Positions 6,907 through 29,747 of a DNA stretch of 64,000 nucleotides are shown here, in pieces. Numbering within the stretch: the stretch's first letter is position 1; the number at the start of each line of letters is the position of its first letter. This DNA comes from a virus (lineage: Duplodnaviria > Caudoviricetes). A program made the position numbers and the translations under genes. The notes below the pieces were generated by a model, which was not told the origin of the DNA, made no database searches, and saw only the letters and a list, made by a program, of their open reading frames with translations. The stretch spans positions 64,001-128,000 of the IMG/VR virus record IMGVR_UViG_3300014205_005221, one strand, 5' to 3'.

Positions 6907-6907
6907 C

Positions 6908-9350: not shown

Positions 9351-9357
9351 TTGTTAC

Positions 9358-9798: not shown

Positions 9799-9869
9799 TT
9801 AACTCCCCTCTCACTCTCGCAACCGGTTCATCCGGAACACCACTGTTCTACCCGGCAGAAAGGGAACTG

Positions 9870-11396: not shown

Positions 11397-11427
11397 AGTA
11401 CTCCATTCGAGAGGATCCCAGCGGCTT

Positions 11428-11787: not shown

Positions 11788-11802
11788 ACGACGCTTCTAC
11801 CC

Positions 11803-12051: not shown

Positions 12052-12054
12052 GCT

Positions 12055-12809: not shown

Positions 12810-12832
12810 GTCTGTGTTGTACCCAGCAGTGG

Positions 12833-13058: not shown

Positions 13059-13066
13059 CGCAAGTC

Positions 13067-13764: not shown

Positions 13765-13766
13765 GT

Positions 13767-14051
13767 CTACCTTCTACCCTGAAACGGGCTGTAGTGATAG
13801 ATCATGCCTAAAAGCCAACTACGTCCCACCGGATTGGCTGAATGAACACGAACCACACGCGGCCAGCGATCCTCATGCTCACAGAGCCAGAGAACCACCG
13901 GCCGCGTCGTGTCCTCGCCGCCCAGGTCGTGATCAAGCGACATCTCCGAGACCGCACAGATACTCAGAGTTTCGATTGCCGCACTCGAACTCAGCGCCCA
14001 CGCCCACTCGGAGCCCGGAGGCTTGCGAATGTCATCGACCCAGAGCTTCAT
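13767..14051 (-). CDS. Cyclic-phosphate-processing receiver-like domain protein
   Basis: KLWVDDIR, SLDHDLG and VHSANPVG motifs. Confidence 0.75.
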   Translation of the reverse strand: MKLWVDDIRKPPGSEWAWALSSSAAIETLSICAVSEMSLDHDLGGEDTTRPVVLWLCEHEDRWPRVVRVHSANPVGRSWLLGMIYHYSPFQGRR

Positions 14052-14596
14052 GCCACATGTTCTACCCTGTCCGGGAACAGGCACCTGACGTTGTACGGAA
14101 TCCACTCCTCCTTGGAGTAGCGCGACCGGATCAGACCGACCACCCACTCCGGGACCAGCTCCTCAGACTCCAGGTACGACGCACGCGCCCACTCCGGAAG
14201 CTGACGCGTGATAGCCCGGCGCTTACCCTTGAGCGAGCGCGGAGGCATACAGGAGCCCGGATCATCCCAAGGACCGGCAGGAACCTCCGGAACCGAGAAC
14301 TGGCTCCACCGCTCACGGCGCGGAGCGTTCCTTTCCTCGTGCCACAGCGAGATGGTGCAGTGCGCACGGTTGGAACCCTTACGGTTATTGCAGTCGGCGC
14401 ACAGGATCGTCGCGTTCTCCATCAGCGACGCACCACCCAACGAGCGCGGGTGGATGTGATCCAAGGTCAACTGCGAGCCGGTGCCCCAGACATTCGGACA
14501 CCGGCACTGCCTACATCGTTCGTGGCCCAACCGGATGCGTGCTCGATACACTCGCACCCAGTGGGCATGCTTATCCCAGCTGGGGTACGTAGCCAT
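14048..14596 (-). CDS. HNH endonuclease
   Basis: LTLDHIHPRSLGG...N...LCADCNNRKG. Confidence 0.85.
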   Translation of the reverse strand: MATYPSWDKHAHWVRVYRARIRLGHERCRQCRCPNVWGTGSQLTLDHIHPRSLGGASLMENATILCADCNNRKGSNRAHCTISLWHEERNAPRRERWSQFSVPEVPAGPWDDPGSCMPPRSLKGKRRAITRQLPEWARASYLESEELVPEWVVGLIRSRYSKEEWIPYNVRCLFPDRVEHVA

Positions 14597-14663
14597 AATG
14601 ATGTTATACCCGACTACAGAGACCGTGTCATCTGATATTCGAGCAACGACACCGGATCAGACG

Positions 14664-14924
14664 CTAACGGGAGAACTCATCCTTGGTCTCCTCGGTCAGC
14701 TCTTCGAGCTTCTCCAGGAACTCCTCGAAGCACTCCCGAAGCTCATCACCTTTACCCGCGTCCGACTGCACCGTCGCCATGACACCGCACAGCTTGCGCA
14801 CGCGATCAACGTCCTTGGTGTCGCGCGACAGAGTGTCAGCTTCGATCAGATCCCAGTTCCCCAGGAAATCAATGATCTTGCGCAAACGCCGAAGCTCGAC
14901 AAGAGCCAACTCATAGCTACTCAT
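14664..14924 (-). CDS. Hypothetical protein
   Basis: Acidic helical ORF overlapping the upstream stop. Confidence 0.55.
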   Translation of the reverse strand: MSSYELALVELRRLRKIIDFLGNWDLIEADTLSRDTKDVDRVRKLCGVMATVQSDAGKGDELRECFEEFLEKLEELTEETKDEFSR

Positions 14925-15375
14925 CAGCAGGCTCCACATCCAGCCACTCACCAGCAGGCTCCACATCCAGCCGCTCCGGAAGCTTGTTGTGCCTCAGACC
15001 GGTCGCCAGCACCACCGCCCCCGCAAACGGAACATGGACTACCAGCGTGCGATTGCCGTACTCATCGCCGCCACGCCAAATCCACTTGTCTCGATTAACG
15101 TGATCACGAAGGTAATACCACACCCGGCGGGCAGACGGATACGTCATGCGCGCCATCAGATCGGGGCGCTTCACCGTCAGCTGGAAAACGATCTCTTCCG
15201 CAGCAGCCGCAGACCGCCGCGTCTCATCGGAGCCGTCCAAGTCGAGAATATCCTCGATCAGGCCCTGCGCCTCCAGCTGCGCAAGAGCGTAATCGTCCGA
15301 CTCAGCGTCTACACGCTTCTCGTGACGATCATAAATCCAACGGGTAATACGCAGCATTACTGCCCTCTCATACAA
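14917..15375 (-). CDS. Hypothetical protein
   Basis: GGDEYGNRT motif; C-terminal LDVEPA duplication. Confidence 0.6.
   Translation of the reverse strand: MYERAVMLRITRWIYDRHEKRVDAESDDYALAQLEAQGLIEDILDLDGSDETRRSAAAAEEIVFQLTVKRPDLMARMTYPSARRVWYYLRDHVNRDKWIWRGGDEYGNRTLVVHVPFAGAVVLATGLRHNKLPERLDVEPAGEWLDVEPADE
14920..14973. repeat. 27-bp tandem duplication (2 copies, 2 mismatches)
   Basis: ctcatcagcaggctccacatccagcca / ctcaccagcaggctccacatccagccg. Confidence 0.9.
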
Positions 15376-15391
15376 ATTGCTTACCGCTGTT

Positions 15392-15775
15392 CTACCCCGA
15401 CATGCGTGAAAGCAATTCCGCTGCTACCGCAGCCGTGCGCTTAGCCGGTGTCGACGGCTTTAATCCGAGCGCGATGTTGATGGTCACCAGCGCCTCACCA
15501 AGACCCTCATTCGCCTCGATAAGCTGGCAAATGACGTCATTCTCGTTCGGAGACTGGCCCATCGAGGCAAACAGATTCGGAGCGCCAGTAGCCAGGATCG
15601 TGCACTCCCGGCACCAATGAGACTGGTCTTCCGGAGTGCCGACAAACGCCTCTGACCAGCCGCCGTACTCCACCGCCTGCCGCCACGTCTCCGCAGACGT
15701 AGCACCGGTGCCGCCCGCCCACACATCACGGCAGTGGTCACACACGAACTCGTAGAGATGCCTGCGCACCAACAT
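15392..15775 (-). CDS. Hypothetical Zn-finger protein
   Basis: CDHC...HWCREC; TGATG start. Confidence 0.6.
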   Translation of the reverse strand: MLVRRHLYEFVCDHCRDVWAGGTGATSAETWRQAVEYGGWSEAFVGTPEDQSHWCRECTILATGAPNLFASMGQSPNENDVICQLIEANEGLGEALVTINIALGLKPSTPAKRTAAVAAELLSRMSG

Positions 15776-16050
15776 CAGCGCCTCCGCTTCACACGCGCCC
15801 GAGAGCGGCGATGGTATGCCCGGCCATCGATGACCAGCGGGTTGGGTCCGCCCAGCTCGCAACAGCACCCCGCCGGGCCGTAGCCGCCCTCTTTCTCCCC
15901 GCACAGACACGTCCACTCGACGCAGCACAGGTTGATGCACAGCCCCGAAGTGTAAGACGGAGTGTCATCGTCGGGCTCCACACGACGTCCACAACACCAC
16001 TTGTTGTAACCTTCAGGCTCACCGAGACCCAGGTCATCAAGCCAAGACAT
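15775..16050 (-). CDS. Hypothetical Cys-rich protein
   Basis: GGGAG RBS; many Cys. Confidence 0.55.
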   Translation of the reverse strand: MSWLDDLGLGEPEGYNKWCCGRRVEPDDDTPSYTSGLCINLCCVEWTCLCGEKEGGYGPAGCCCELGGPNPLVIDGRAYHRRSRARVKRRR

Positions 16051-16059
16051 CAGACTCCC

Positions 16060-16326
16060 CTACAGACCCGGAACATCATCGGTACCGCCGCCGGAACGGA
16101 AGCGCGACAGCACCTCGGTCACCACTTCATCTCCGCTGTCTGTCAACTGCTGATCATGATAGAAACCCGAGGTGGTCTCCACCATGGGGCGATTCGAAGG
16201 CTCGGAATCGGCAATCACCGACGACACCGAATTGGACGGGACCGACAACGCGGAGAGCACAGCCTCTCGAACGTCATCAAAAGAATGCTGCTCGTCGAGA
16301 GCGATTTCGGTCAGATGGCGACCCAC
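16060..16326 (-). CDS. Hypothetical protein
   Basis: TAGTG overlap start. Confidence 0.5.
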   Translation of the reverse strand: MGRHLTEIALDEQHSFDDVREAVLSALSVPSNSVSSVIADSEPSNRPMVETTSGFYHDQQLTDSGDEVVTEVLSRFRSGGGTDDVPGL

Positions 16327-16544
16327 TAGAGTCCACCGATCTTGCCACGCTTGGCTCGAGCCAGCTTGCGCATCGCATACACCATGCGCTCCGCTTCCTC
16401 GCGCAGCATGTAGCGATACAAGATCTCCAGACTGAGAACGCCACCGTTCGCCGCAGCGATCTCGCCCATGCGGTAACGGCCAATCGCCCACTCGGTGACC
16501 TCGTCCATCTCTTCTTCCGTGAGGTCCAGCGCGAAATCTTCCAT
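16326..16544 (-). CDS. Hypothetical protein
   Basis: MEDFALD start after GGAG. Confidence 0.55.
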   Translation of the reverse strand: MEDFALDLTEEEMDEVTEWAIGRYRMGEIAAANGGVLSLEILYRYMLREEAERMVYAMRKLARAKRGKIGGL

Positions 16545-16546
16545 GC

Positions 16547-17107
16547 TCAAATCTCGCCACCGATCAGCAAATGCGCCATCGTGGCGAGCGCCCATCGACC
16601 GTGATCCGGATCGTCACGCAGCGGGGTCAGATGATCGCGCAACATCTTCAACGCCTCAATCGCAGACGTCTCACCTGTATCCTGCAGATACCGCAATGCG
16701 CCATCAACGCGATCAATAAGAACTTCCGCCTGCTGCTCAGCAGGAAGCGAACGCTGCGCAACCTCATGACCGCGCGACCCGGGGCTGTAAGACCGCGTCA
16801 CACCCTCGGGAAGATTGCCGGGAATCTTTCCGTGAGTTCGATACGGGTCCGTAGACGGAATAACCATAAACGAGTCGCTCGATCCGCGCGCCAGGTCGCG
16901 CACGTCCGCGACATCAATCGGCACGTCGAACACCGCATCCGTACGCTCGGCACGAAACGCCAGGCTGGGAGAGATCGCAGAACGGACGGCACGCTCCGCC
17001 AGATGCGCTGCGTCGCCGTAGTCCACCGCTGGGACGTTGGAAAACACCACCGTAGCGATGCGCCACACCGGCTCGTCAGCGTTGTCGTAAACAGGCTTCT
17101 CGGTCAT
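16547..17107 (-). CDS. Hypothetical protein
   Basis: Start 7 nt after CGGTATGA. Confidence 0.65.
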   Translation of the reverse strand: MTEKPVYDNADEPVWRIATVVFSNVPAVDYGDAAHLAERAVRSAISPSLAFRAERTDAVFDVPIDVADVRDLARGSSDSFMVIPSTDPYRTHGKIPGNLPEGVTRSYSPGSRGHEVAQRSLPAEQQAEVLIDRVDGALRYLQDTGETSAIEALKMLRDHLTPLRDDPDHGRWALATMAHLLIGGEI

Positions 17108-17114
17108 AAGCTAG

Positions 17115-17411
17115 TCATACCGACTCAGCGAGATCATCCAGCTCGCCCGCAAGCGCGGCTCCGCTATAGCCCTGCGCCTCCACCAGCTCACGCAGCGCCG
17201 CTCGCTTCTCCGGGATGGGCCCATCACCATCGACCCAAAGGCGCACCACCGCCCGGCATCGCATGAGCAACCACGAGCGCGCGTGCGCCTCGTCGTAGAG
17301 CGCCTGCTCCAGCGCCACGATTTCACGCTTGAGACGAAGCACCTCGGCCTGCAGGTTCTCCGCCGTGCCTCGCCAGTCCACCAGAGCCAGGTCTACGCCT
17401 TCGGAATCCAC
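17115..17411 (-). CDS. Hypothetical coiled-coil protein
   Basis: GTG after GGAGG; heptad pattern. Confidence 0.6.
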   Translation of the reverse strand: MDSEGVDLALVDWRGTAENLQAEVLRLKREIVALEQALYDEAHARSWLLMRCRAVVRLWVDGDGPIPEKRAALRELVEAQGYSGAALAGELDDLAESV

Positions 17412-17631
17412 GCTTCCTCCACGCACCGCAGGTCAGCGCCGTAGCGCTCATACCAGATGTCATACCCGGTCGGGTCATCATCTTCAGCCCGGGGCAACTT
17501 CTTCGGTGCGCAGACCGGCGGGAAACACGTTCAGCTTGCGCACGTAGACGTCCATGGTCTCGTGCACAGCGATCAGCGGAGACTCCTCTTCGGACATGAA
17601 GCAGTCTCTACGAAACCGCGATCAAACAAAC

Positions 17632-18066
17632 TCACCGCTCCCACCACCCCACCGGTTCCGCTCCGACCAATACTTCAGAATCGCGAGGACTCCACTTTTC
17701 GTAAAACCTGTACCACTCGATCTGCGGCTGAGTATTTCCAATGTGCGTACGCTTTCCATCTGTATAATCAGTGTGTACACCGACATACTTTTGAAAATCC
17801 GCGTGACGCTCCGCCTCTACAGCAGTCTGTTCCGGAGACAGTCGATACAGCTGATACCGGCGATAAAAACCGCACTGATCTGCTTCATCAGTCTTTTCAT
17901 CGTAGCAATCGCACTGCTCGATCATTTGCGCCCAAAGAACTGTCCCGTCTTCAAGGCGCACCATGCCCGAAATGGGACCGTCGTAATACGACGAGTGATA
18001 AACCCACTGGATGTTATCCAGCTGCGGACCCAACGCAGGGTTATCCGGAATGTGCTCGGACTTCAC
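17632..18066 (-). CDS. Hypothetical protein
   Basis: YYDGPISG motif; GTGA overlap. Confidence 0.65.
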   Translation of the reverse strand: MKSEHIPDNPALGPQLDNIQWVYHSSYYDGPISGMVRLEDGTVLWAQMIEQCDCYDEKTDEADQCGFYRRYQLYRLSPEQTAVEAERHADFQKYVGVHTDYTDGKRTHIGNTQPQIEWYRFYEKWSPRDSEVLVGAEPVGWWER

Positions 18067-18770
18067 TTCTCCGACTCCTTGCGGGCCAGATCCCGGGCGC
18101 AGTCCTTGCAGATCGACGGACCTCCACAGCGAGCCCGCGCCCCATCCGGACGGGGATACACGTGGCCGTGACCGGTGTTGGACCCCTCAGAACCCGGCAG
18201 ATCGATGGGCTTCACCGCAGGCTCCTTGTCCTCAGGCGTAGGCATCACCACGGTCGCGCCCACCGGCACCATGAAAATGCGATACGACGGCTCGGGCACG
18301 ACATTTCGATGCCCGCGACACAGGTACAGCTCCGCCGTCACGTTGGGGTCGTCCTCGGCGCGAGCAGACATCAGAGCCCGGACAGGCAGCCCGACCGACC
18401 ACGGCTCCTTGCAGTTGTGGATCATGCACATCCGCGCGCCTCGATGAAGGGCGTACAGGTCCAGGACCGTGACCTTCTTCCAGTTCCGGGCGTAATCCAT
18501 GTCCAGGACAGGCTCGGATTCCCGGATGAACATCACGCCCTGACCGGTCGCACGGTTGAGCTGCCACACCCGCTGCAGTACATCATCGGCGGTGATGCGC
18601 GGAATGTCCTCATCTTCGTCGAGGCAGAACTGCACCACCTCCTCAATGAACTTTCGCGTGTCATCGTGCCACCCGTAGGACCAGAACACCGGCATCGGAG
18701 AGCCCAGCTCCCCGTCAAAATCCATCTCGTAGTCCTGAGTGATTTCCAGAACAGGCTCAGACTCGGTCAC
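18063..18770 (-). CDS. Hypothetical protein with C-terminal Zn-binding motif
   Basis: GHGHVYPRPDGARARCGGP.IC..C motif. Confidence 0.65.
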   Translation of the reverse strand: MTESEPVLEITQDYEMDFDGELGSPMPVFWSYGWHDDTRKFIEEVVQFCLDEDEDIPRITADDVLQRVWQLNRATGQGVMFIRESEPVLDMDYARNWKKVTVLDLYALHRGARMCMIHNCKEPWSVGLPVRALMSARAEDDPNVTAELYLCRGHRNVVPEPSYRIFMVPVGATVVMPTPEDKEPAVKPIDLPGSEGSNTGHGHVYPRPDGARARCGGPSICKDCARDLARKESEK

Positions 18771-19015
18771 GACACACCCGGAATCACGCGCAGCAGCCGC
18801 ACCGACGTGCACGGCCAGCGAGAACCGCATTCACGACACTGACGATCGCGGTGGATGCACTCCTCCTGCTTCTCCACCTCGGTGCCGGGACAGGTGGGAC
18901 ACACCGCTCCCTTCACCACGTGCAGACGGCGCATCTCCTCGACCACCCGATACATCAGCGCGGACAGATCGTTGGTCACCCGCACCGGCTCAGGCACAGC
19001 AATCACACGTTCCAT
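18767..19015 (-). CDS. Hypothetical Zn-finger protein
   Basis: CRECG..WPC.S motif. Confidence 0.6.
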   Translation of the reverse strand: MERVIAVPEPVRVTNDLSALMYRVVEEMRRLHVVKGAVCPTCPGTEVEKQEECIHRDRQCRECGSRWPCTSVRLLRVIPGVS

Positions 19016-19050
19016 CAGGATGTCCTCTCGATGTTCGCCATGCAGCTGTC

Positions 19051-19515
19051 CTACCCTGACTTCTCGACTGTCTTGGCCTCCGCGCGCATACGCTTCGCGT
19101 GAAACATGGTGTCATCCGCAAGATCTTCAGGCATGTTCCTGGCCGCCGCCTCCAGCGCATCCGCAGACTCGCGCAGAGCCCTAGCCCGGCCAGCCGGAGA
19201 CGCCGCGAACGCTTTGCGCGCCGACCGACGCGAGAACCACATCAGCGACGAGTACGCCCCGCACAACAGCCCGATAGCGGCAAGCAGCGGCCAGAACGGA
19301 GCCCCCACAATCGCCGCCACCCACGTGATAGTTACGTCATCCTTGTAATCGCCGAACTCGTCGCGTTTGCGGCCAATCAGCTCATGCCTAGCCTGATTGC
19401 GCGCCGCCAGCACCACGCCGACAACCCACCACAACGCCCACACGTAAATCCAGACAGACAGCACGATGTCCCCGGCCAGCTTGCCGGAACCGTCAATCAG
19501 GAACCACGGAGTCAC
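19051..19515 (-). CDS. Membrane protein
   Basis: Two TM segments with a WP motif. Confidence 0.65.
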   Translation of the reverse strand: MTPWFLIDGSGKLAGDIVLSVWIYVWALWWVVGVVLAARNQARHELIGRKRDEFGDYKDDVTITWVAAIVGAPFWPLLAAIGLLCGAYSSLMWFSRRSARKAFAASPAGRARALRESADALEAAARNMPEDLADDTMFHAKRMRAEAKTVEKSG

Positions 19516-19799
19516 GGTGACACACCGGTATTGGACAAATCAGCTTCCAACGCCTGGCGCAACAACCTCACCGCCGACCGGTACGCCTCCGACTTGAACG
19601 CAGACTCCAGCGACGGAATACAGCTCAGCTGAGCCGCCAGATCCTCGATGTCAGAGACGATCTCCTCGATCAGCGACAGCCGCACTCGCATCCGCACGTT
19701 GTCGGCCGTAAGTTTCAGCGGATCCGTGCGCTCCCCGATATCCGCTGCGCGGGCGAACACCCGGGCAATGCGCTCCTCGACGTCGTCCACGTCAATCAC
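19512..19799 (-). CDS. Hypothetical protein
   Basis: GTGA overlaps at both ends. Confidence 0.6.
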   Translation of the reverse strand: MIDVDDVEERIARVFARAADIGERTDPLKLTADNVRMRVRLSLIEEIVSDIEDLAAQLSCIPSLESAFKSEAYRSAVRLLRQALEADLSNTGVSP

Positions 19800-19933
19800 T
19801 CCCAGAAGTCAAAAAGATCCAGCATGCGCCGACGACGCTTGCGCCCGTACCGAGTCCGCACCCACAGCGTGGCAAACCACAGCGCCGTGCCCACCACGAA
19901 AAACCCGGCCAACCACCACAGCGACTCTGTCAT
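19796..19933 (-). CDS. Small single-TM protein
   Basis: MTESLWWL... TM followed by a basic tail; ATGA overlap. Confidence 0.5.
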   Translation of the reverse strand: MTESLWWLAGFFVVGTALWFATLWVRTRYGRKRRRRMLDLFDFWE

Positions 19934-20367
19934 CCGAACGCCGCCGCCATATGCCATCCCGGGGCCTCGGCGAGCAGCGGAAGCTCCAGACGCTCCATGA
20001 ACGCGTGCAACCGATGCCACCACTCATGCTCGGTGCCCACCGGGAAGAAATCCCGAGGGCTCAGCGGCTCAGGAGAGTACTCACCGGTGGTCAGAGACTC
20101 CGCGATGTACACAAAATGCTTGGTCTCACCGTTGAGATTTCCGTACCAGTCGATACCGCAACCGGCGCCCCGCACCAGATCGCGCAGCTGCTCGTAGGAA
20201 GGATTCTCGATCCCGGCAACCTGCGCCAACCGCTCGTCGTACTCCAGCAGATTGGTGTCACCAGAGAGCAACCACTCCGGGGAACGATCCTCCCAGTCCG
20301 GAGCCATCCCGTCGATGCCGCCGAGATCGGATCCCCAGAAGATGTGTGTCGATACAGAGCTACCCAT
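19930..20367 (-). CDS. Hypothetical protein
   Basis: Leaderless start 7 nt after GGGTAGAA. Confidence 0.65.
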   Translation of the reverse strand: MGSSVSTHIFWGSDLGGIDGMAPDWEDRSPEWLLSGDTNLLEYDERLAQVAGIENPSYEQLRDLVRGAGCGIDWYGNLNGETKHFVYIAESLTTGEYSPEPLSPRDFFPVGTEHEWWHRLHAFMERLELPLLAEAPGWHMAAAFG

Positions 20368-20376
20368 GTCGGTGTT

Positions 20377-20643
20377 CTACCCCTGACCGTTGCGACCCGG
20401 GATGGTTTCGCAGCCCCAACAACACCAGAACCGCAGCGTGCCATCCGCATCCGTAGTGAAATTGCCGTCCTCGATGTCTTCCCAGTCAAAACACCAGGGG
20501 CATAGGATCGCCTCACCGAGCCCGACCGCCTCCAGATACTTGATGTAGTCCGGAACGGACAACGGGGTGTCCGCCGCCTTACACGGCCAGGACACCCCGC
20601 ACACACAGAAATCCAAACGGCTATCCGTCGGAATATGAAGCAC
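20377..20643 (-). CDS. Hypothetical Zn-finger protein
   Basis: CVCG.SWPC, CPWC and CWGC motifs. Confidence 0.6.
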   Translation of the reverse strand: MLHIPTDSRLDFCVCGVSWPCKAADTPLSVPDYIKYLEAVGLGEAILCPWCFDWEDIEDGNFTTDADGTLRFWCCWGCETIPGRNGQG

Positions 20644-20939
20644 TATTCATCCGTCCCCAGCAGATTAGTCACCCGGTTCTGCCGAGCCAACTCCAGCGCC
20701 AGCTTCTCAAACCGGTCATACTCGCGCTCCAAATCTTTGAGCAGCGTGTTATCTCCGTGCGCCATGATCTGCTCCCAGAGCTGCGCCCACCGCAGCGACC
20801 GCATCCAGCCCAACCCGGACGCCGCGAAATGCCGGTGGCGCATACACACCGCCACGCCCTCCACCACGGTAAGCGCCAACGCCTCCTCGCCCTGAGAACG
20901 GCCGGGAAGGTACAGGCAATACGCGCACATCAGATTCAT
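20643..20939 (-). CDS. Hypothetical protein
   Basis: CAYC...C..H; leaderless start. Confidence 0.6.
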   Translation of the reverse strand: MNLMCAYCLYLPGRSQGEEALALTVVEGVAVCMRHRHFAASGLGWMRSLRWAQLWEQIMAHGDNTLLKDLEREYDRFEKLALELARQNRVTNLLGTDE

Positions 20940-20948
20940 GTCAGCCTT

Positions 20949-21044
20949 CTACCCTGACAATCCGGATCGGAGCTGCCGCACTCGCGCGATCAGCAAATGC
21001 CACTCCAGACCCGGAGGCAGATACCGAGGCGAACCGTCCGCCAT
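20949..21044 (-). CDS. 31-aa micro-protein not in the ORF track
   Basis: MADGSPRYLPPGLEWHLLIARVRQLRSGLSG; TGATG start overlap; ends at GGG-TAG motif and fills the gap exactly. Confidence 0.5.
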   Translation of the reverse strand: MADGSPRYLPPGLEWHLLIARVRQLRSGLSG

Positions 21045-21304
21045 CAGGACACACCCGGCCACAGACGCGCCGCCTCCGCGAGCACCGGATTCATCGCAGA
21101 CACCCCGATCGGGGAAGACGCCGCCACCGCCTCCCGAATCTCGTCATCGGTGCAACCCAGGTGATAGAGAGCGATGACGGCCGACACCATTGTGTCTTTC
21201 ACAGACGTGTTCACCCGCTCCGGAGCGCACGCCGCAAACGCCGTGATCACCAACTCGATTGCCTGCACCCGATCAGCAGGCAGCCCAATCTGCATTCCGT
21301 ACAT
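21044..21304 (-). CDS. Hypothetical protein
   Basis: TGATG overlap. Confidence 0.55.
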   Translation of the reverse strand: MYGMQIGLPADRVQAIELVITAFAACAPERVNTSVKDTMVSAVIALYHLGCTDDEIREAVAASSPIGVSAMNPVLAEAARLWPGVS

Positions 21305-22170
21305 CACTTCCCCAACCCGGCATGACGGCGCCACGCGTGATAGGCCACCGCACCCGACTGACTCTGCCAACGACCCACCGAGCCGCAACCACACACCCAC
21401 CGCCAGACGTCAGAACCCTCTTCCCCCGGCAGCTCGAAGCGATGCACACCGAACGCGCTCGACAACCGCACCGACTCCACACACCGCGAACAGTCGCACG
21501 GCCGCGCACCCTCACCGAAAAACTCCGGGGCCAACCCCGACACCTCACCCGGAACACCCTCGACGATCACCATCCCGGCCAACGGATCGACCTTGCGGCC
21601 CTCCCGAGCACGACGAGTCCGCGCATACTCCGAATCCGGCCACAGCAGCATGTCGATGACATCAGCCTCCTCCAGCAACTCCGCCCGGATCAACTCCAAC
21701 ACATCACGATCGAAGTCCACCGCCGACCGATCCAGATCCGGATCCAGCAGTTCCGCCCAGCCCCGACAGCGTGCCGCCAGCGCATCGACGCTCGACCGCA
21801 ACTCGCGCCCCAGCTTCATCAGCGCAGCAGGGTCAGAGCTATTCGAGCCCATCGACGTCGCCACCGCAGCCATGTCGTCAGCGGCTCGCAGAACATCCGC
21901 TTCCAGCCGCTCCCGGCGCTTGCCGTGCTTGCGCTCCAGCGGCTGCCACACCCGGCGCAGCTCATTGTCCGCCTCCACCGAGAGCTTGTCATCGGACGCG
22001 CAGCCGATCAGTACATCGGCAAGATGGCCCAGCGGAGTCCGCCACCCCAGCAGCCGCTCGGCGGTCTCGAACGCCCGGATCAGATCCTTGTTCATACTGC
22101 TGTCATACCGAGCGAGCACAGCATCCACGAACTCACGATGCTTGATTCTCAACCGATCGATCTCACGCAC
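21304..22170 (-). CDS. Hypothetical protein with C-terminal Zn-binding motif
   Basis: CDCSRC and CGCG...H; GTG start overlapping the upstream stop. Confidence 0.6.
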   Translation of the reverse strand: MREIDRLRIKHREFVDAVLARYDSSMNKDLIRAFETAERLLGWRTPLGHLADVLIGCASDDKLSVEADNELRRVWQPLERKHGKRRERLEADVLRAADDMAAVATSMGSNSSDPAALMKLGRELRSSVDALAARCRGWAELLDPDLDRSAVDFDRDVLELIRAELLEEADVIDMLLWPDSEYARTRRAREGRKVDPLAGMVIVEGVPGEVSGLAPEFFGEGARPCDCSRCVESVRLSSAFGVHRFELPGEEGSDVWRWVCGCGSVGRWQSQSGAVAYHAWRRHAGLGK

Positions 22171-22774
22171 GCGGCCACGAATCCACAAGACGACCATCGA
22201 CCCGGGCCTCATGCGCCGAAGCATGATCGAGCACCAGCGAACAGCGATACCCCTCTGCACCCAAAAACGGGATGGGGCTCAGCTCGCCGCACACCCGCGA
22301 AACCTCAGCCTCGAAAGCGCGCAGCGCACACAGATACCCGTCGCGGAAATTGTCGTGCGACTCAGGAGCACGCGGACTCCTACGCAACGCCGCCATCACC
22401 GCACTCAACGAAGACTTCAACCGATCGATCTCGGCGAGCAGCGTCTCCACGTCCACCCGGGAATGGGCGATGAACCGGCCCGTCTCCGCCGGTAACTCCC
22501 CGAACTCCGAAGCCTGCCGGTGATAGTCGCGCGCCTCACAACCCGGACCGGGCTCGGTCAGCACCACCGGAGTCCGCATCGCGTGCATCCACGGAGCGTG
22601 CGCGCAGCCATACCCGTCCCCGCAGTCGCAAAAGTCGTAGTCAGGAATCCACGGACCCGGGATCGCCGCAGCCACCCGCTCCCGGATCGCCACCAGCGAA
22701 TCCCCATGGTCGGGACAATCCACCGACTCCACGAGCTGACCATCCATACGGTGATCGCACACGCAACCAAACAT
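22163..22774 (-). CDS. Ead/Ea22-like protein
   Basis: IRER.AAA.PGPW ... RFIAHSRVDVETLLAEIDRL. Confidence 0.65.
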   Translation of the reverse strand: MFGCVCDHRMDGQLVESVDCPDHGDSLVAIRERVAAAIPGPWIPDYDFCDCGDGYGCAHAPWMHAMRTPVVLTEPGPGCEARDYHRQASEFGELPAETGRFIAHSRVDVETLLAEIDRLKSSLSAVMAALRRSPRAPESHDNFRDGYLCALRAFEAEVSRVCGELSPIPFLGAEGYRCSLVLDHASAHEARVDGRLVDSWPRA

Positions 22775-22776
22775 GT

Positions 22777-22890
22777 CTAATTATCCTCGCTGTCCGGAGC
22801 ACACTCACACGGCCACGTATCACAGTTATCGCACCACCAGCCGGAAAAACTTTCATAACACCCGGAGCAGCGAAAACTCGCATCACTCAC
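22777..22890 (-). CDS. 37-aa Cys-rich micro-protein
   Basis: GTG after AAGGAG: MSDASFRCSGC...CDNCDTWPCEC. Confidence 0.45.
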   Translation of the reverse strand: MSDASFRCSGCYESFSGWWCDNCDTWPCECAPDSEDN

Positions 22891-23017
22891 TTGAAATGCT
22901 CCTTGGAGAACAGACCCTCCGCAGGCTCGACCATCACGTCCCGCCCTCCAAGCACACCGCATCCGGGCCCGGCCAACAGATTCGCCACTTGCGCAACGCC
23001 GCCATGACAAACCCGGA

Positions 23018-23413
23018 TCACAGCGGCCGATAGCGGCGAACCACCGCAGCCAACCACCGAGGAAACCGCTCATCGAGAATGTCTTCCTCCGTGACCACGA
23101 ACTCCGCATCACCGTCCCAGGACACCAACCTTTCCGGAGCAGGATCCGACACCAACCCGGACAGGCACACCCGTTCCACCACAGCCGGATCACCCGGCGC
23201 AGCACGGCCGTAGAGCACCGAAACCGACCGAGCCAGGATCGCACGACCCTCACCAGCCTGAGCCACCCACGCAGCCCCAGACACGGTTACAGACACCTCC
23301 GTGCGCTCACCGAGGAAACCGTGCGAGAACGGAGCAGACGGATTTGAAAGGCGATCATCGATCCGGATGACAAGACCATCGTATGACAGGTCTGCAGCAG
23401 ACTCTTCGCTCAC
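23018..23413 (-). CDS. Hypothetical protein
   Basis: GTG 7 nt after GGGTATGA. Confidence 0.6.
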   Translation of the reverse strand: MSEESAADLSYDGLVIRIDDRLSNPSAPFSHGFLGERTEVSVTVSGAAWVAQAGEGRAILARSVSVLYGRAAPGDPAVVERVCLSGLVSDPAPERLVSWDGDAEFVVTEEDILDERFPRWLAAVVRRYRPL

Positions 23414-23439
23414 ACACCTGTCATACCCGGGGACGGCAA

Positions 23440-24044: not shown

Positions 24045-24153
24045 AGCAACCCCCTCACGCCAACCTTTTCACCGATCACCGGGCAAGTACAGATCTACTA
24101 ACTACTGTGTAGCAGACTTATGTTGGATCCCGGAGCTAGATGGCGGAGCCGTT

Positions 24154-24957
24154 CTACCCGGCCAGGGGGTTCGCTTCGCCGCGACGCGCCCATTCCGAGG
24201 AAAGTTCAGCCTTCAGAACAGCCGTGATCATCGACGCACCCTGTTCTCTAAAAGTCCGAACCCACTCCGTCGCATATGGACTCATCAACGGATCACAACT
24301 GATCTCCGGAAGCTTCCGGGCGATAGCCGCGTCGTCCATCTCCAAGTAGTACGCCATAGCCAGCACGAGCTGGTGTGTTTCCGGCAACCCCTGGATCACC
24401 GCCACGACCTTGTCGCACACGGTATTAGTCAGCGCATCGTCTGCGACATCGACCGGATCCGCAGGCCAAGTGTCCTCTGTGGTCTCTTCCAGAGACACAG
24501 GCATGCGCTGCAGCGCGCCCACCGCTCGCTTCACATCGACGGGCGTGATGCCCACCCGGGCAGCGATGGACTCGGCGGACTCGGCCTCCCACGGCGAGGA
24601 CAGATCCACCCCCGCTGCGAGGATCTGCTTGATCAGAGCCCGCTCACGGCGCGTAGCCGGATCCTGGGAGCGGAGGGCATCAATGACCGCACCGTTGATG
24701 CGGCGCGAGGCGTAGGTGTCGAACCACGACCCCGCTTCGCCCTCGTACGCCTCGTAGCCGTTCTCCTCGCAATACTTCTCCCACCGCAGCGCGGCAGCGA
24801 TCAGACCGGAGATGGCGTACGCGATGATCTCATCACGTTCGTATCCGACTAACCGCTGCCACGCTCGATGGCCGCAGGCGCGGGCAAGGCCCACGCGATC
24901 CTCAACAAGCTTACGTTGCCTGTCCGTCAAACGGACCACGTCATCGGCCATGCCCAT
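24154..24957 (-). CDS. Phage-encoded sigma-70 family factor (group 3, FliA/WhiG-like)
   Basis: Region 2 GLIAAA...FDTYASRRINGAVIDALR, region 3 IAARVGIT...PVSLEE, region 4 LPETHQLVLAMAYY. Confidence 0.85.
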   Translation of the reverse strand: MGMADDVVRLTDRQRKLVEDRVGLARACGHRAWQRLVGYERDEIIAYAISGLIAAALRWEKYCEENGYEAYEGEAGSWFDTYASRRINGAVIDALRSQDPATRRERALIKQILAAGVDLSSPWEAESAESIAARVGITPVDVKRAVGALQRMPVSLEETTEDTWPADPVDVADDALTNTVCDKVVAVIQGLPETHQLVLAMAYYLEMDDAAIARKLPEISCDPLMSPYATEWVRTFREQGASMITAVLKAELSSEWARRGEANPLAG

Positions 24958-24969: not shown

Positions 24970-27690
24970 TCAGCTACACCCGCTGGTGTCGCCGCAGCTG
25001 TCACAGGTCCAACAAACGCCAGCCTTGCGCATCGCGATCCCACATCGACCACAGATCGGAGCCTCCAAAGAGAACCCGGCTGTGCGAGGGAGACGCTGCT
25101 CTGCAGGGGTGTGAGCGACTGGCTCGGTCTCCACGGACTCGGCCACCGGCTCCAGAGCAGCTGCACGCTCAGACATGGAAAGCACACCCAGCGCTTCCCT
25201 CTGATCGCGAGAAAGGTAGTCAACTGCAAGGCGCTTGAAGACATAGTCGAGCACAGAACTGGAAAGTCGGATATCGGGGTCCGACGTCATTCCACGCGGC
25301 TCGAACTGCATGCCTGTGAACTTATCTACGAACGATTCCAGCGGAATTCCGTACTGCAATCCGATAGAAACGGCGATGGAGAATGCATCCATCACGCCAG
25401 CCAGCGTCGATCCCTGCTTACCAAGCTTCAGGAAGATCTCGCCAAGCTGACCATCTTCGGTATCCGACGACGTCAGATACCCGCTCGCGCCTCCGACCTC
25501 AAACGATGTCGTGAGACCATTACGACGTGCAGGAAGACGGCGGCGCTGAGGCACGACCACCGGAGCGTCTTCCGCCTTCTTGTCCGCGCTGGTCGCCAGC
25601 GGCTGCGTGGCCTTGCAGCCATCGCGATAGACCGCAAGAGCCTTCAGGCCCAGCGACCACCCGGACATGTAGACGTTGGCGATGTCCTCGACTGAAGCGT
25701 CAGCGGGGAGGTTCACCGTCTTGGAGATCGCGCCAGACAGGAACGGCTGCACCGCAGCCATCATGTTGACGTGCCCCATCGGAGAAATGAACCGCTCACC
25801 CGTAGCGCAATCGAACACTTCGTAATGCTTCTCGTCCAGACCGGGAGCGCCGACAACAGAGTTGTTGTCCTTGACGAACGCGACAATACCCTCGATCTGC
25901 GCAGATGAGTAGCCCAGGTTCCGCAGCGCCGACGGGACCGTCTGGTTGACGATCACCATAGAACCGCCACCGTGCATCTTCTTGTGCTTGACCAGGCTGA
26001 AGTCCGGCTCCACACCAGTGGTGTCACAGTCCATCATAAAGCTGATCGTGCCCGTCGGAGCGAGCAACGAAATCTGCGCGTTACGGAAACCGGTGACCGC
26101 GCCGATGTCCAGCGCGTCCGCCCACTCCTGCGTCGCGAAATCCCGGATACCGACGTCAGTACCCGGAGCCAGCCGCAGGTGCTCGTTGGCCGCAGCGTGC
26201 ATCCCCACGACCTTGAGGTGCGCCTTGGCGTTGCGCGCGTGCCCCTGGTACGCGCCCTTGGCCCGAGCGATGACCGCCGACTGCCGGTAGCTCGTCGCGC
26301 TCATCAGCGAGGTGATCGACGCCGCGATTGCCCGGCCACCCTCAGAGTCGTACGCCAAGCCCATGGCCATGAGCAGCGCACCCAGGTTGCTGTAGCCGAT
26401 GCCCAGCTGCCGGTACTCGCGGGTGACCTTCCCGATCTTCTCGGTCGGGAAGTCCGCAAACGACACCGAGATGTCCATCGACGAGATGACGATTTCAACG
26501 GCCTGCGAGAACTTCAGGTAATCGAAGCGCAGGTCCGGGGTCAGGAACTTGAGCAGGTTCAGCGATGCCAGATTACAGCTGGAGTTATCCAGATGCATGT
26601 ACTCCGAGCACGGATTCGAAGTCGTGATCCGGCCCGACTCCGGACAGGTGTGCCACTTGTTAATCGTGTCACCGTACTGAATGCCCGGGTCCGCACATTC
26701 CCACGCAGCCTTGGACAGCGCCTCGAAGATCCTGCGCGCGGGCAGCGTCTCCGCTACCGAGCCGTCGGTGCGGTTGTGCAACGAAAACATCTTGTCATCA
26801 CGCACCGCCGCCATGAACTCATCGGAGACACGAATCGAGTTGTTCGCATTCTGATACTGAACCGAGTTGTAGTTCTCAGACGCCATGCCCATGTCGAACC
26901 CGGCGGCGGAGAGGGCGCGGATCTTGTCCTCTTCGCGAGCCTTGATCTCGATGAACTTCATGACATCGGGATGGTCCACATCCAGGCAAACGAGCTTCGC
27001 CGCCCGACGATTCGCTCCGCCCGACTGGATCGTCCCAGCGGACGAATCCGCGCCCCGCATGAACGACACCGGACCGGACGCCTGACCACCCGATGAGAGC
27101 AACTCCTTGGAGCCCCGAAGACGAGACAGGTTCACACCCGCGCCGGAGCCGCCCTTGAAGATCATCCCCTCTTCTTTATACCAATCGAGAATCGCCTCCA
27201 TGTCGTCCTCGACGGCCAGAAGGAAACACGCGCTGACCTGCTGCGGAGCCTTGGTGCCGACGTTGAACCACACCGGCGAGTTGTAAGCAAAGATCTGGTG
27301 CAGCAGCATGTAGGTCAGCTCAGCGCGGAACGCATCCGCCGACTCGGTGTCTGCAAAGTAGTTGTTGCGAATACCTTCATCAGCGTACTTATTCGCAACA
27401 CGACCAATAACCTGCTTGAGCGACCACTCCCGATCGGGGGTGCCCATCTTGCCTCGAAAATACTTCGAAGCAACGATCTGGCGCGCATTCATCGACCACT
27501 CAGCGGGGAACTCGGTGCCCAGCTGCTCGAAGTTGATCTCGCCAGTGCGGTAGTCCTTCAAAACGATGTCGGTGCTCTCCCACGCCACCTCAGAGAACGG
27601 ATCCACGCCTGGCTTTGTGTAGACCCGGGTTACGACGATTCCCGTCGGCCGAGTCGAAACTTCATCAGTGGTCTGCACAGACACGAGCAA
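24970..27690 (-). CDS. nrdJ: Class II (B12-dependent) ribonucleotide reductase with C-terminal TSCPD/Zn-ribbon region
   Basis: NSPVWFN, SACF, RRAAK, NPCSEY, CNLASLNL, APTGTIS, ISKTVN and C-terminal CxxC..TSGCS. Confidence 0.95.
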   Translation of the reverse strand: MLVSVQTTDEVSTRPTGIVVTRVYTKPGVDPFSEVAWESTDIVLKDYRTGEINFEQLGTEFPAEWSMNARQIVASKYFRGKMGTPDREWSLKQVIGRVANKYADEGIRNNYFADTESADAFRAELTYMLLHQIFAYNSPVWFNVGTKAPQQVSACFLLAVEDDMEAILDWYKEEGMIFKGGSGAGVNLSRLRGSKELLSSGGQASGPVSFMRGADSSAGTIQSGGANRRAAKLVCLDVDHPDVMKFIEIKAREEDKIRALSAAGFDMGMASENYNSVQYQNANNSIRVSDEFMAAVRDDKMFSLHNRTDGSVAETLPARRIFEALSKAAWECADPGIQYGDTINKWHTCPESGRITTSNPCSEYMHLDNSSCNLASLNLLKFLTPDLRFDYLKFSQAVEIVISSMDISVSFADFPTEKIGKVTREYRQLGIGYSNLGALLMAMGLAYDSEGGRAIAASITSLMSATSYRQSAVIARAKGAYQGHARNAKAHLKVVGMHAAANEHLRLAPGTDVGIRDFATQEWADALDIGAVTGFRNAQISLLAPTGTISFMMDCDTTGVEPDFSLVKHKKMHGGGSMVIVNQTVPSALRNLGYSSAQIEGIVAFVKDNNSVVGAPGLDEKHYEVFDCATGERFISPMGHVNMMAAVQPFLSGAISKTVNLPADASVEDIANVYMSGWSLGLKALAVYRDGCKATQPLATSADKKAEDAPVVVPQRRRLPARRNGLTTSFEVGGASGYLTSSDTEDGQLGEIFLKLGKQGSTLAGVMDAFSIAVSIGLQYGIPLESFVDKFTGMQFEPRGMTSDPDIRLSSSVLDYVFKRLAVDYLSRDQREALGVLSMSERAAALEPVAESVETEPVAHTPAEQRLPRTAGFSLEAPICGRCGIAMRKAGVCWTCDSCGDTSGCS

Positions 27691-27744: not shown

Positions 27745-29430
27745 TCACGCCACGCGGCGGTTGAGCGCCTGCGGTGCGATCAGCGCGGAGATTTCTGCCG
27801 GAGACAGCGTGCGGAACAGATCGGACTCCTCTTCCCACACGGCCGACGCCAATGCGGCCTCGGTCTCCAACATCGCCAACGCCCGCTCCTCGTGGGTATC
27901 TGTCGTAAGTAGATTGTGTACGTACACAGCCTGGAAACGAGAGCCCTGACGACGAACCCGACCAGCAAGCTGCTGCATACGTGCTGGGTTCGGCAGCTGA
28001 TCCACGTTCACCAGATGCCGAGCCACCTGCAAGTTCAGCGACTTCTCGATGGCCGAGGTCCCCAACAACACTCGACAGGACGGATCCTCACGAAACCGCT
28101 CCAGGGCGGCGTCACGAACAGCGCCACGGCGTTCCTCGCCCCAGATGACCTCGTACCCAAGCCCTTCGGATTCCATCCGATGTGCGAGCGAACGAAGACC
28201 GTTCTTGTACTGGATGAAAACGACAACCTTCTCGCCCGCGTCGTCTTCAGATTCACCAGCCCAGTCCCCGGTCAGACGGTCGAGCAGCCAATCGAACTTC
28301 ACGGACTTACCCGGACCGTCGGGATCCCCGATTACCGACAGTCCTTCGCAAATCTGCTTCCCGTAGAGCAGCTTGTTCAACGCATTGATCCGCTGGTTCT
28401 CACCGTTGCGCACCATTTCGAGAACACCCTGCTGCAACTCGCGATACTTCTCGCGCTGCAACGGGTGCAACTCCAGAAAAATGTTCGAGGGCACGATCTC
28501 GGGAAGCTCGACATCATCGATTTGCGCCAGCGAACGGCGCAGCACCATCGGCGCGATCTTCTCCCGAAACTCCGGAAGCCGACGAATACCGGTGGTCTCC
28601 ATCTTCGTGCGCTTGACCGGACGTCCGCGCGGACCGTTGACCCAGTAGTCCACCGGCTCCTTGCGAATGTGTCGGCGCTCGAACTCGGTACGCGGACCGA
28701 GCCGGTGCAGCGCTGAACCACCGATCTGGCTCAGCGAGTCATACAGCTCCAGCAGCTTCTTATGCAAAGGCGTGGCGTTGAGCAGGATGATGCGGTCGCA
28801 CGAATTGTTCTCGATGCCCAGCTTCTTGAGCGCGTGCGCCGTCTTCGTCTCGGAGTGCCGCAACGGATCCACGTCATCCATCACCAACGTGGAGATCCCC
28901 AGCTCCTGCAGCTGGTAGTAGTCCTGACGCGCCATCTGGTGACCGATGATCAGAACATCCCACGGCTCGGCATAGCGGTCCGCGCGCTTACGCTGCGAGC
29001 CCTCGGCCAACTCCGTGATCAGACCCGGGACCGCGCGGCGAATCTCGCGCTGCCACTGCCTCATAGCCGTTGGCTCGCACACCACCAGAGCGCGGCCACC
29101 GCCCCGAGGTCGACTCAGCTCGCCGGTCTCGAACAACAGCGCGAACAAACCCGTGATCACGTGAGTCTTGCCGGACCCGACAGGATCAGCGATCAGACCA
29201 CGCTTGACCAGCCAAAGCCACATGACCGCAACCCGCTGGTGACGACGCAGCTTGATGCCGCACGCCCGGCAATACGGGTTCGGATCTGGGTTTTCGGGGG
29301 CGTGCTCTGAGCACGGAGATGAGTTGAACAACGACATCTCTGGCATGCCAGGAATGTCGTAGGAATTGCGGACAATTTCGGCTGCCTCCGCCAGCGCAGC
29401 CGGATTGACCCTATCCAGAACTGAGGGCAC
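27745..29430 (-). CDS. SNF2-family helicase/ATPase
   Basis: ADPVGSGKT, LNATP, KVVVF, LNLQ.A, NPA..QQ..GRVRRQG. Confidence 0.88.
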   Translation of the reverse strand: MPSVLDRVNPAALAEAAEIVRNSYDIPGMPEMSLFNSSPCSEHAPENPDPNPYCRACGIKLRRHQRVAVMWLWLVKRGLIADPVGSGKTHVITGLFALLFETGELSRPRGGGRALVVCEPTAMRQWQREIRRAVPGLITELAEGSQRKRADRYAEPWDVLIIGHQMARQDYYQLQELGISTLVMDDVDPLRHSETKTAHALKKLGIENNSCDRIILLNATPLHKKLLELYDSLSQIGGSALHRLGPRTEFERRHIRKEPVDYWVNGPRGRPVKRTKMETTGIRRLPEFREKIAPMVLRRSLAQIDDVELPEIVPSNIFLELHPLQREKYRELQQGVLEMVRNGENQRINALNKLLYGKQICEGLSVIGDPDGPGKSVKFDWLLDRLTGDWAGESEDDAGEKVVVFIQYKNGLRSLAHRMESEGLGYEVIWGEERRGAVRDAALERFREDPSCRVLLGTSAIEKSLNLQVARHLVNVDQLPNPARMQQLAGRVRRQGSRFQAVYVHNLLTTDTHEERALAMLETEAALASAVWEEESDLFRTLSPAEISALIAPQALNRRVA

Positions 29431-29456: not shown

Positions 29457-29747
29457 TTACTGAATCGCTTGATCAGTCCTACCCGCCGAAGGCAGATCCC
29501 GGACGAACCGAGGGGGCGACCCCCACGTCACGAGAGGCGGTTGAGCTGCAGGTTTGCGGGGTGTCACCACCGCGACCGCATAATTCAAATCCCTAGAGAA
29601 CGCCTGAATTGCCTCAGCAATCAAAGACGTGCGCCAGTCAGCCTTCATGGACATCTCCCCAGTGATGTCTGCCGACAGATCTACCAAGATAGGTGACCTG
29701 ATGAAGGCGGTTAAGGCGACGTGCTCGGTGGCATCCCTGCACCACAC
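29457..29747 (-). CDS. Hypothetical protein
   Basis: Fills the gap; weak support. Confidence 0.35.
   Translation of the reverse strand: MWCRDATEHVALTAFIRSPILVDLSADITGEMSMKADWRTSLIAEAIQAFSRDLNYAVAVVTPRKPAAQPPLVTWGSPPRFVRDLPSAGRTDQAIQ

Follow-up and report, generated by a model that had tools for sequence, protein, structure and literature searches.

A phage sigma factor with an enlarged region 4 turn as candidate reader of a mostly leaderless promoter class without a -35 in a 186-kb actinobacterial siphovirus

The DNA analysed here, called the window throughout, is a stretch of 64,000 nucleotides (bases 64001-128000) of a 186,050-bp contig, C1 (IMG/VR record IMGVR_UViG_3300014205_005221), and it carries on its minus strand, at 24154-24957, the gene of a phage sigma factor. 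C1 is a siphovirus genome, that of a phage of about 186 kb of an uncultured actinobacterium. We propose that this sigma factor reads a large set of phage promoters, hereafter class II, made of a single 8-bp element and standing beside host-type promoters (class I) in the same genome; it is the more economical reading of the data, and we would give it a probability of about 0.6. The original prediction, made from the sequence alone, had already nominated the protein as the reader of promoters containing GGGTA. The geometry of the element, the lack of a -35, the existence of a separate host-type class, the absence of this promoter form from a co-binned bacterial genome and its co-occurrence with the sigma gene in related phages all speak indirectly for that pairing. 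Binding and transcription are inferred, as are the identity of the reader (this sigma and not another factor), the loss of -35 reading by region 4 and the way in which the regulatory loop described below would start.

Class II was defined as the 8-bp word GGGTAGRA, with [GC]GGTA[GT]RA as its wider form. The exact word is present 67 times on the coding strand of C1, for about 4 copies expected, as GGGTAGAA (33 copies) and GGGTAGGA (34 copies), with about 2 expected of each and a single copy of each on the opposite strand; within the window, all 12 copies of GGGTAGAA lie on the minus strand (0.64 expected). With the relaxed pattern [GC]GGTA[GT][AGT]A, the whole contig has 99 sites on the coding strand versus 13 on the other, and an ATG or GTG is found exactly 7 nt downstream of 54 of these 99. 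Almost all exact sites (61 of the 67) are located outside the interior of open reading frames (ORFs); many come straight after hairpins with T-rich tails, and many lie 30-120 nt upstream of genes that have a Shine-Dalgarno site of their own. They head replication genes, a clamp loader gene, many small genes, the operon that ends with the sigma gene and the packaging/head operon (CGGTATAA at C1 149533; GGGTAGAA at 112004 in the related complete genome G002). We consider GGGTAGRA, on these sequence grounds, to be a real, phage-specific class of putative promoters, with about 90-100 mostly leaderless sites.

When +1 is set on the A of the ATG, the element spans -15 to -8; T-12 and A-11 are invariant, -7 is C or G with T almost absent, and no position upstream of -20 is conserved. 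In the open complex of Pseudomonas sigma-28, the -10 element is "(-15)GCCGATAA(-8)", a conserved arginine reads the G's at -15/-14, A-11 is flipped out and, unlike in sigma-70, the -7 base is not flipped (PMC12784957). By analogy, the class II register (-15 to -8, A-11, no T at -7) is the one expected for a sigma-28-like reader and would make a poor sigma-A site. None of the 67 exact sites has a GTTT 14-18 nt upstream, as in the SigB/SigF-type arrangement GTTT-N14-18-GGGTA(T/C), and the sigma-28-type arrangement TAAA-N15-GCCGATAA is absent from the whole 186-kb contig as well as from three related phage genomes (G002, G012, and G013).

The phage also has promoters of another kind. Class I, for which the coding strand has about 40 sites and the opposite strand has none, shows the structure TTGACW-N17-TANNNT followed after 6-7 nt by ATGACGAA, the first eight coding bases being conserved too; a position weight matrix (PWM) of the class gives 49 matches above 10, some of them overlapping, versus 0 on the other strand. 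These sites, which mostly head small ORFs, form clusters at both ends of the contig and are scattered in the replication region (C1 296-11722, 22597-28173, 39444, 55786-64979, 175163, and 183268-185905), and the distance from TANNNT to the ATG is that of the TAGRAS part of class II. By their sequence, they are plain sigma-A promoters that would give leaderless mRNAs. C1 was binned together with an 80%-complete actinobacterial metagenome-assembled genome (MAG), which we used as a sample of an actinobacterial genome with a G+C content equal to that of the phage and which may not be the host. Leaderless genes of the MAG show TANNNT at 6-7 nt before the ATG (272 and 132 cases versus a background of about 40); the two GGGTAGRA 8-mers occur there at chance (41 and 33 observed versus 43.5 and 42.7 expected), GGGTANNN-N7-ATG is not enriched (25 versus about 20), and no GGGTAGRA has a start codon at 7 nt. 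Because the MAG shows TANNNT-N6/7-ATG and not GGGTANNN-N7-ATG, the phage appears to use the normal promoter type of its host for one set of genes and a host-foreign type for the rest; and since it has some 40 host-type promoters besides, GGGTAGRA would need another reader. The promoters of the window, apart from those of the sigma operon itself, are as follows:

192..23428, minus strand: 21 further class II elements ([GC]GGTA[GT]RA) downstream of the sigma gene, 13 of them 7-8 nt before the ATG or GTG of an ORF of at least 40 aa
20947-20954, 20375-20382, 13772-13779, and 7853-7860, minus strand: examples of those 13
58951..63766, minus strand: four class II elements upstream of the tail module, those at 60413-60420, 62579-62586, and 63759-63766 being leaderless
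951..979, minus strand: example of a class I promoter, TTGCTT-N17-TAGCTT, 6 nt, then ATGACGAA

From family scores, searches of the PDB and AlphaFold/Foldseek comparisons, the protein is a three-domain (group 3) sigma factor that is nearest to the sigma-28 branch and falls outside the curated threshold of that family. Its top NCBIfam family is FliA_WhiG (TIGR02479; E 5.9e-17), aligned over residues 68-214 with 62.2 bits for a cut-off of 189.6; the WhiG and FliA equivalog models (42-60 bits; cut-offs 201-343) and the SigB/SigF/SigG family TIGR02980 (31.3 bits; cut-off 234.35) are likewise not reached. Pfam regions 2 and 4 match only under their cut-offs (Sigma70_r2 at residues 70-99), and the PHROGs annotation is RNA polymerase sigma factor. 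The best solved relatives, by profile and by single-sequence searches, are E. coli FliA (6pmi), WhiG (6pfj/6pfv), and Aquifex FliA (1rp3), followed by SigF; 9wsm is also among the best sequence and fold matches. The AlphaFold2 model of the whole protein has a predicted local distance difference test score (pLDDT) of 90.7, and Foldseek with the full chain retrieves B. subtilis SigD, Pseudomonas sigma-28, FliA, sigma-S, and mycobacterial sigma-A at a probability of 1.00 over 240-297 columns, with TM-scores that are low (0.26-0.37), as expected of a flexible multi-domain chain. The sigma-2 domain is covered by the NCBIfam and PDB alignments (FDTYA..RI.GA.ID.LRS, residues invariant in 17 homologues), the sigma-3 domain, absent in group 4 (extracytoplasmic function, ECF) sigmas, forms three helices at 103-151 in the model, and a sigma-4 domain with a helix-turn-helix (HTH) is present. 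The likeness of regions 2 and 3 to FliA/WhiG, which the original prediction had pointed out, is thus borne out, and the three peptides that it quoted are all in the translation.

The close family consists of 36 metagenomic proteins, 42-78% identical to the sigma of C1. Just two of 1.8 billion cluster representatives matched below 1e-30, ordinary sigmas following at 1e-24, and the alignments to the latter nearly all stop at residues 205-220. Identity to the WhiG-like sigma of the MAG is 25%; among cultured phages, the sole tblastn match is Microbacterium phage Magritte (26% identity), megablast gave no match, and no prophage copy was found in bacterial genomes (one genome per species searched). 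A further peculiarity lies between regions 2.2 and 2.3, where an extra stretch of about 12 residues with a conserved Cys, RW..YC..GY (residues about 57-72; window 24742-24790, minus strand), is found in all 18 wider-family phage sigmas compared and is absent from the WhiG-like and SigF-like sigmas of the MAG.

Region 4 sets the close subfamily apart. In a MAFFT alignment, the HTH turn of region 4.2 is longer by an insertion of 10 residues in all nine members of the subfamily, whereas nine more distant phage homologues and the WhiG-like and SigF-like sigmas of the MAG lack it; an insertion at this place had been noticed beforehand and is confirmed. Region 3.0 reads DP-ATRRER in the insertion-bearing subfamily and DW-xxRSxR in host WhiG and the distant phage homologues. 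The parts of the protein concerned are:

24640..24732, minus strand: regions 2.3/2.4 to 3.0, residues 76-106, FliA/WhiG-like (TYA..RI.GA.ID.LRS.D), with DP-ATRRER in region 3.0
24172..24447, minus strand: region 4, about residues 171-262, sigma-4 fold kept, with a long C-terminal helix at its end
24271..24312, minus strand: residues 216-229 (LPEISCDPLMSPYA), within which the HTH turn of region 4.2 has its 10 inserted residues

In the AlphaFold2 model, a short helix (217-220) and a loop (221-225) precede the helix 226-262. A model of the domain alone (residues 163-267, pLDDT 83) superposes on sigma-4 domains, which indicates that the fold is kept with about ten extra residues: the VIA search gave Z 8-10 to such domains, the top 50 rows being all sigma factors, among them sigma-E region 4 on -35 DNA (2h27; Z 9.9, root-mean-square deviation (rmsd) 2.0 Å, 71 residues aligned over 82 model residues), WhiG 7lq4 at Z 8.3 and the sigma-4 domain of M. 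tuberculosis SigD at an rmsd of 1.3 Å; Foldseek E-values for region 4 alone are weak (0.2-0.3). The alignment of the phage recognition helix with the -35-contacting residues of sigma-28 is ambiguous, and residue mapping was not used. The enlarged turn and the DP-ATRRER of region 3.0 are likely, judging from sequence, to be adaptations to a promoter read only around -10.

The sigma and the motif travel together, as the original prediction had suggested checking. Eight of the nine phages with an insertion-bearing sigma also have the class II motif (this phage, L013, L015, G001, G002, G003, L335, and L336), as detailed here for those with counts (paired counts are given as coding versus opposite strand):

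L013 (sigma 74% identical): 16 GGGTAGGA in 20.8 kb, 11 of them at 7 nt before an ATG
G002 (complete 153-kb genome, circular assembly): 99 relaxed sites versus 20, mostly with 6-nt spacing, and 63 versus 10 in the comparison across phages
G003: 36 versus 5
G001: 21 versus 7
L335 (42% identical): 8 versus 0, most of them followed by a leader of about 30 nt and by a Shine-Dalgarno site distinct from the motif
L336 (47% identical): 10 versus 0

The spacing in L335, about 30 nt upstream of Shine-Dalgarno sites, is as expected of a promoter rather than of a ribosome site. For comparison, we used the major head protein, which is common to 74 IMG/VR contigs: 15 of the larger ones were tested, and the nine that are at least 51% complete all have a sigma homologue (E 1e-17 to 1e-37) with a turn of normal length. 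None of these nine capsid-related phages shows class II enrichment. With eight of nine on one side and none of nine on the other, the motif tracks the insertion-bearing subfamily, down to 42% identity. A motif that is phage-specific, strand-specific, over-represented, absent from the host and seemingly co-inherited with a sigma is what characterizes a phage sigma with its own promoter class, as for phiEco32 gp36, T4 gp55, and SPO1 gp28, and the sequences examined here fit this description. A blind scan of IMG/VR for GGGTAGGA-N4-GACATG adds little: the matches listed are mostly due to chance, and the motif-rich loci among them are two sigma-bearing contigs that we already knew.

As to the motif that normal-turn homologues might recognize, k-mer enrichment in G012 and G013 yielded nothing clearly bipartite or sigma-28-like; it returned sigma-A-like promoters with conserved leaders, a palindromic box and the word AAGAATTT. 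In G013 (L248-L254), the reverse strand between 36 and 95 kb has 17 sigma-A-like promoters (TTGCAATTGCA ... TAGACT) followed by a conserved leader, TAAGGTCA, and a ribosome site and start, AGGAGACACCATG; AAGAATTT is strand-specific there (26 versus 6).

Under the reading that we favour, the phage sigma would bind the host core RNA polymerase and steer it to class II promoters, made of a -15 to -8 element without a -35, where transcription would mostly start on the A of the start codon to give leaderless mRNAs. Host sigma-A would read the roughly 40 class I promoters, and expression could thus unfold in two tiers, class I early through sigma-A and class II afterwards, with the phage sigma running replication, nucleotide-metabolism and virion genes together with its own operon, in a positive feedback loop. 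That operon is organized as follows:

29510..29526, minus strand: G+C-rich terminator-like hairpin between the tail genes and the operon promoter, its sequence kept in relatives
29477..29484, minus strand: class II element GGGTAGGA heading the SNF2-RNR-sigma operon (RNR, ribonucleotide reductase), about 4.5 kb upstream of the sigma gene, with an equivalent in six phages
27745..29430, minus strand: SNF2-family helicase, opening the operon
24970..27690, minus strand: class II (B12-dependent) RNR, adjoining the sigma gene upstream
24154..24957, minus strand: phage sigma factor gene, 267 aa from the first ATG, closing the operon
24152..24159, minus strand: class II element GGGTAGAA overlapping the sigma stop codon TAG (24154-24156), with a leader of about 100 nt to the downstream genes

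The sigma gene starts 12 nt after the RNR gene. Its second ATG (24951), which gives 265 aa, is the likelier start because of its Shine-Dalgarno spacing (a GGGGAG box 8 nt before) and of the 265-aa gene call in the database. The order tail genes, SNF2, RNR, sigma is retained in every relative fetched, the sigma is a core gene with a fixed position in each reasonably complete relative, and no second sigma gene was detectable elsewhere on the contig. The stop codon lies inside a copy of the motif, as originally described, in this phage and also in L013, L015, L016, L017, and L335; in L018, the motif is 3 nt past the stop. The hairpin at 29510-29526 (minus strand), between the tail genes and the operon promoter, is followed by GGTTYGT, and the whole is conserved in six phages; it is probably a terminator that insulates the operon. 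GGTTYGT was considered as a SigF-type -35 of the operon promoter and rejected: its spacing varies (17, 17, 20, 20, 20, and over 30 nt) and a hairpin precedes it, which suggests a terminator tail. No Rfam match was found around the sigma gene. A unit of about 60 nt, consisting of a class II element and CGGCTNCGCCATCTAGNTCCGGG ... TGCTACACAGTA, follows the sigma gene (window 24030-24175, minus strand) and recurs at L003:3420-3562 (minus strand), C1 3546, again without an Rfam match; its 3' half is a working-looking class I promoter at C1 3546 and is decayed in the copy after the sigma gene. In L335, the RNR (L335:6117-9905) has a LAGLIDADG insertion.

Several observations weigh against the phage sigma as the reader of class II. 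Eight motif-bearing phages were examined, and six of them have a class II site 4.5-4.7 kb upstream of the sigma gene, before SNF2 and about 20 nt past the conserved G+C hairpin. A relaxed sigma-A scan of the 1.5 kb upstream of the sigma gene found no site in five of six class II phages, nor in L014 (the weak match in L018, 1144 nt upstream and inside the RNR gene, is probably due to chance), and the class I PWM has no match in the 7.5 kb upstream of the sigma gene of this phage; L335 and L336 have class II-like variants directly before the gene. Both scans thus give no sign that the sigma is expressed from a host-type, early promoter, and with its operon headed by class II the sigma would be needed for its own first expression. 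The retention of the sigma-4 fold by region 4 in the models, so that this region is not lost, tells against a self-contained programme and makes independence from a -35 a presumption. L014, whose sigma is 45% identical and has the insertion, lacks class II sites over the 10 kb that flank the gene on each side, and its genes are Shine-Dalgarno-led with sigma-A promoters. One has to keep in mind, too, that the co-occurrence comes from a single clade and amounts to about one independent event. Finally, the MAG (G000, contigs C22 and C102) encodes, besides two group 1/2 sigmas and a WhiG-like sigma of 317 aa with an N-terminal extension, a SigB/F/G-family sigma scoring 320.6 bits, above the curated TIGR02980 cut-off, and GGGTA is the textbook -10 of actinobacterial SigB/SigF-type sigmas.

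This last pair of facts keeps alive the idea that class II is read by a host holoenzyme, with a SigB/SigF-type sigma or with a sigma-A RNA polymerase re-targeted by an early phage protein, the phage sigma having another target or an auxiliary role. Thermus phage P23-45 is known to use the host sigma on promoters lacking a -35. In six phages, the sigma operon has a class II site and no host-type promoter at its head, as one would expect if class II opened the cascade; with a host factor as the reader, the sigma would be a middle-gene product in need of another target. We nevertheless hold this explanation to be unlikely: the GTTT that SigB/F-type promoters need is missing from all 67 sites, the near absence of T at -7 is bad for sigma-A, this promoter form is not in use in the MAG, motif and sigma subfamily go together across the phages, and no second phage-specific motif was found for the sigma, the virion operons being headed by class II. 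The candidate for such a second, "late" motif was TCGAAGAC, which aligns with the CGA core of sigma-28 promoters and has five of its eight coding-strand copies between genes of virion modules; it was rejected, as it shows neither enrichment nor a preferred position in G002 (16 times forward and 12 times reverse, mostly in coding DNA). Copies of TCGAAGAC (or TCGAATAC) are at window 58231-58238 and 58439-58446 (minus strand) and at C1 154102, 159799, and 161456, one of them 6 nt before an ATG.

GGGTAGRA could also be a start-associated signal acting in translation or at the RNA level, unrelated to the sigma and similar to the start-associated sequence (SAS, GGGATAGGAGCCC) of cluster K mycobacteriophages, a word that it resembles and that likewise lies just upstream of starts (PMC12699233). 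The AGGA within GGGTAGGA could pair with the anti-Shine-Dalgarno; half of the copies, however, have the form GGGTAGAA, GGGTATAA or GGGTATGA and make poor ribosome sites, the invariant T-12 and A-11 recall -10 elements, and the fixed 7-nt spacing is that of the class I -10 hexamer. Together with the many sites far upstream of genes with their own Shine-Dalgarno, or directly behind terminator-like hairpins, this leaves such a signal very improbable. Slightly less probable still, in our opinion, is that the protein acts mainly by competition, occupying core RNA polymerase or titrating a host anti-sigma and so skewing host transcription, WhiG-dependent transcription included, while reading no phage promoter. 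It is WhiG-like, and homologues of developmental sigmas in Firmicutes phages are reported to alter host dormancy (cited in PMC10117723). Against this, no member of the family departs from the residues with which regions 2.3/2.4 melt DNA and read the -10, which speaks for a reader of promoters; relatives keep the gene at a fixed place as part of their core set; and no target sites appear on the host side, where motif counts are at chance. The suggestion that the phage interferes with host development finds no backing either in the absence of WhiG-type promoters from the phage or in the 25% identity to the WhiG-like sigma of the MAG; nothing supports a role in host development beyond generic competition for the core enzyme.

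If the phage sigma does read class II, it controls its own operon, and the loop has to be primed by something. The strongest version of this idea, a closed positive-feedback loop without host-type entry, in which a sigma with a rebuilt sigma-4 turn would initiate from the 8-bp -15 to -8 element alone at about 90-100 mostly leaderless promoters, those of its own operon included, we regard as rather doubtful. Were it true, an unrecognised starter would be needed, e.g., sigma molecules that enter together with the DNA, a host group 3 sigma that also recognizes these promoters or a bypass through an early protein. The notion of a self-contained phage transcription programme therefore stands in part only: pairing the sigma with the motif gives the most economical account, and the self-driven operon, with no host-type promoter, and a region 4 that is not lost tell against the remainder. 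The same holds for an altered region 4 suited to promoters without a -35, where the insertion and the lack of a -35 at the sites agree with the proposal and the predicted structure, enlarged turn notwithstanding, keeps the sigma-4 fold.

The kind of system, a phage sigma with its own promoters, is known; this version of it is new. With the sigma-28 family (FliA of E. coli, Pseudomonas, and Aquifex; WhiG of Streptomyces; TIGR02479), the protein shares the three-domain group 3 organization, the TYA..RI.GA..D.LRS.D motif and a candidate element at -15 to -8 with A-11 and no T at -7; it differs by the insertion of about 12 residues in sigma-2, the 10-residue insertion in region 4.2 and DP-ATRRER, and the promoter word is GGGTAGRA instead of GCCGATAA, with no TAAA -35. 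Late promoters of T4 consist of an 8-bp element around -10 only, present in very many copies per genome and read by the phage sigma gp55, which lacks region 4 and relies on gp33 and the sliding clamp; the -10-only 8-bp element is common to both systems, whereas a full sigma-4 fold is kept here. We know of no sigma in cluster K phages, where the SAS is comparable in being a G-rich ..TAGGA.. word that recurs shortly before the starts of many non-structural genes of actinobacteriophages and differs by an extra A, class II tolerating TAGAA/TATAA and lying also at a distance from starts. The SAS is 13 bp long, includes a good ribosome site and is located 3-8 bp from the start (PMC3203893, PMC12699233); its function lacks an experimental test (PMC12699233). 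Coliphage phiEco32 gp36 similarly redirects the host core RNA polymerase to phage-specific middle/late promoters and has an altered sigma-4-like domain, but it is a two-domain, ECF-like protein that needs -35 base contacts and has gp79 as a helper (PMC12276001), whereas the protein described here has a sigma-3 domain, no conserved -35 and no known helper. Sporulation-type sigmas of Firmicutes phages (Schwartz, Lehmkuhl and Lennon 2022, cited in PMC10117723) are also phage homologues of host developmental group 3 sigmas; they closely resemble SigF/SigG, and host genes are their proposed targets, whereas our sigma is distant from all host sigmas and would have phage promoters as its targets.

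The rest of the contig is that of a siphovirus: about 239 genes, all on the minus strand according to a codon-usage gene caller, among them those for tail proteins (Dit and a tape-measure protein with LysM included), portal, protease, major head protein, and endolysin, as well as DnaB, DNA polymerase, clamp, clamp loaders, helicases, RtcB, and a methyltransferase. The tape-measure protein (window 41293-51171, minus strand) has two LysM domains, and its length of 3292 aa implies an exceptionally long tail. An 838-aa UvsX/RecA-like protein (L005:6229-8742, minus strand; C1 46226-48742) also matches terminase- and primase-like ATPase families and is possibly a fusion or an intein. The primary sigma of the MAG has its nearest relatives in Candidatus Nanopelagicales and other Actinomycetota MAGs.

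If the pairing proposed here is true, a sigma of 265 residues and a single 8-bp word to which the host polymerase does not respond would form a compact, portable transcription module for high-G+C Gram-positive bacteria, and the phage would offer a natural experiment in which a sigma-28-type factor does without -35 reading and yet retains domain 4. With a sigma operon that is self-driven, the question arises of how the programme switches on. The two promoter classes would, moreover, provide a map of early versus middle/late genes for a large family of uncultured actinobacterial siphoviruses of 120-190 kb in which the sigma is a core gene.

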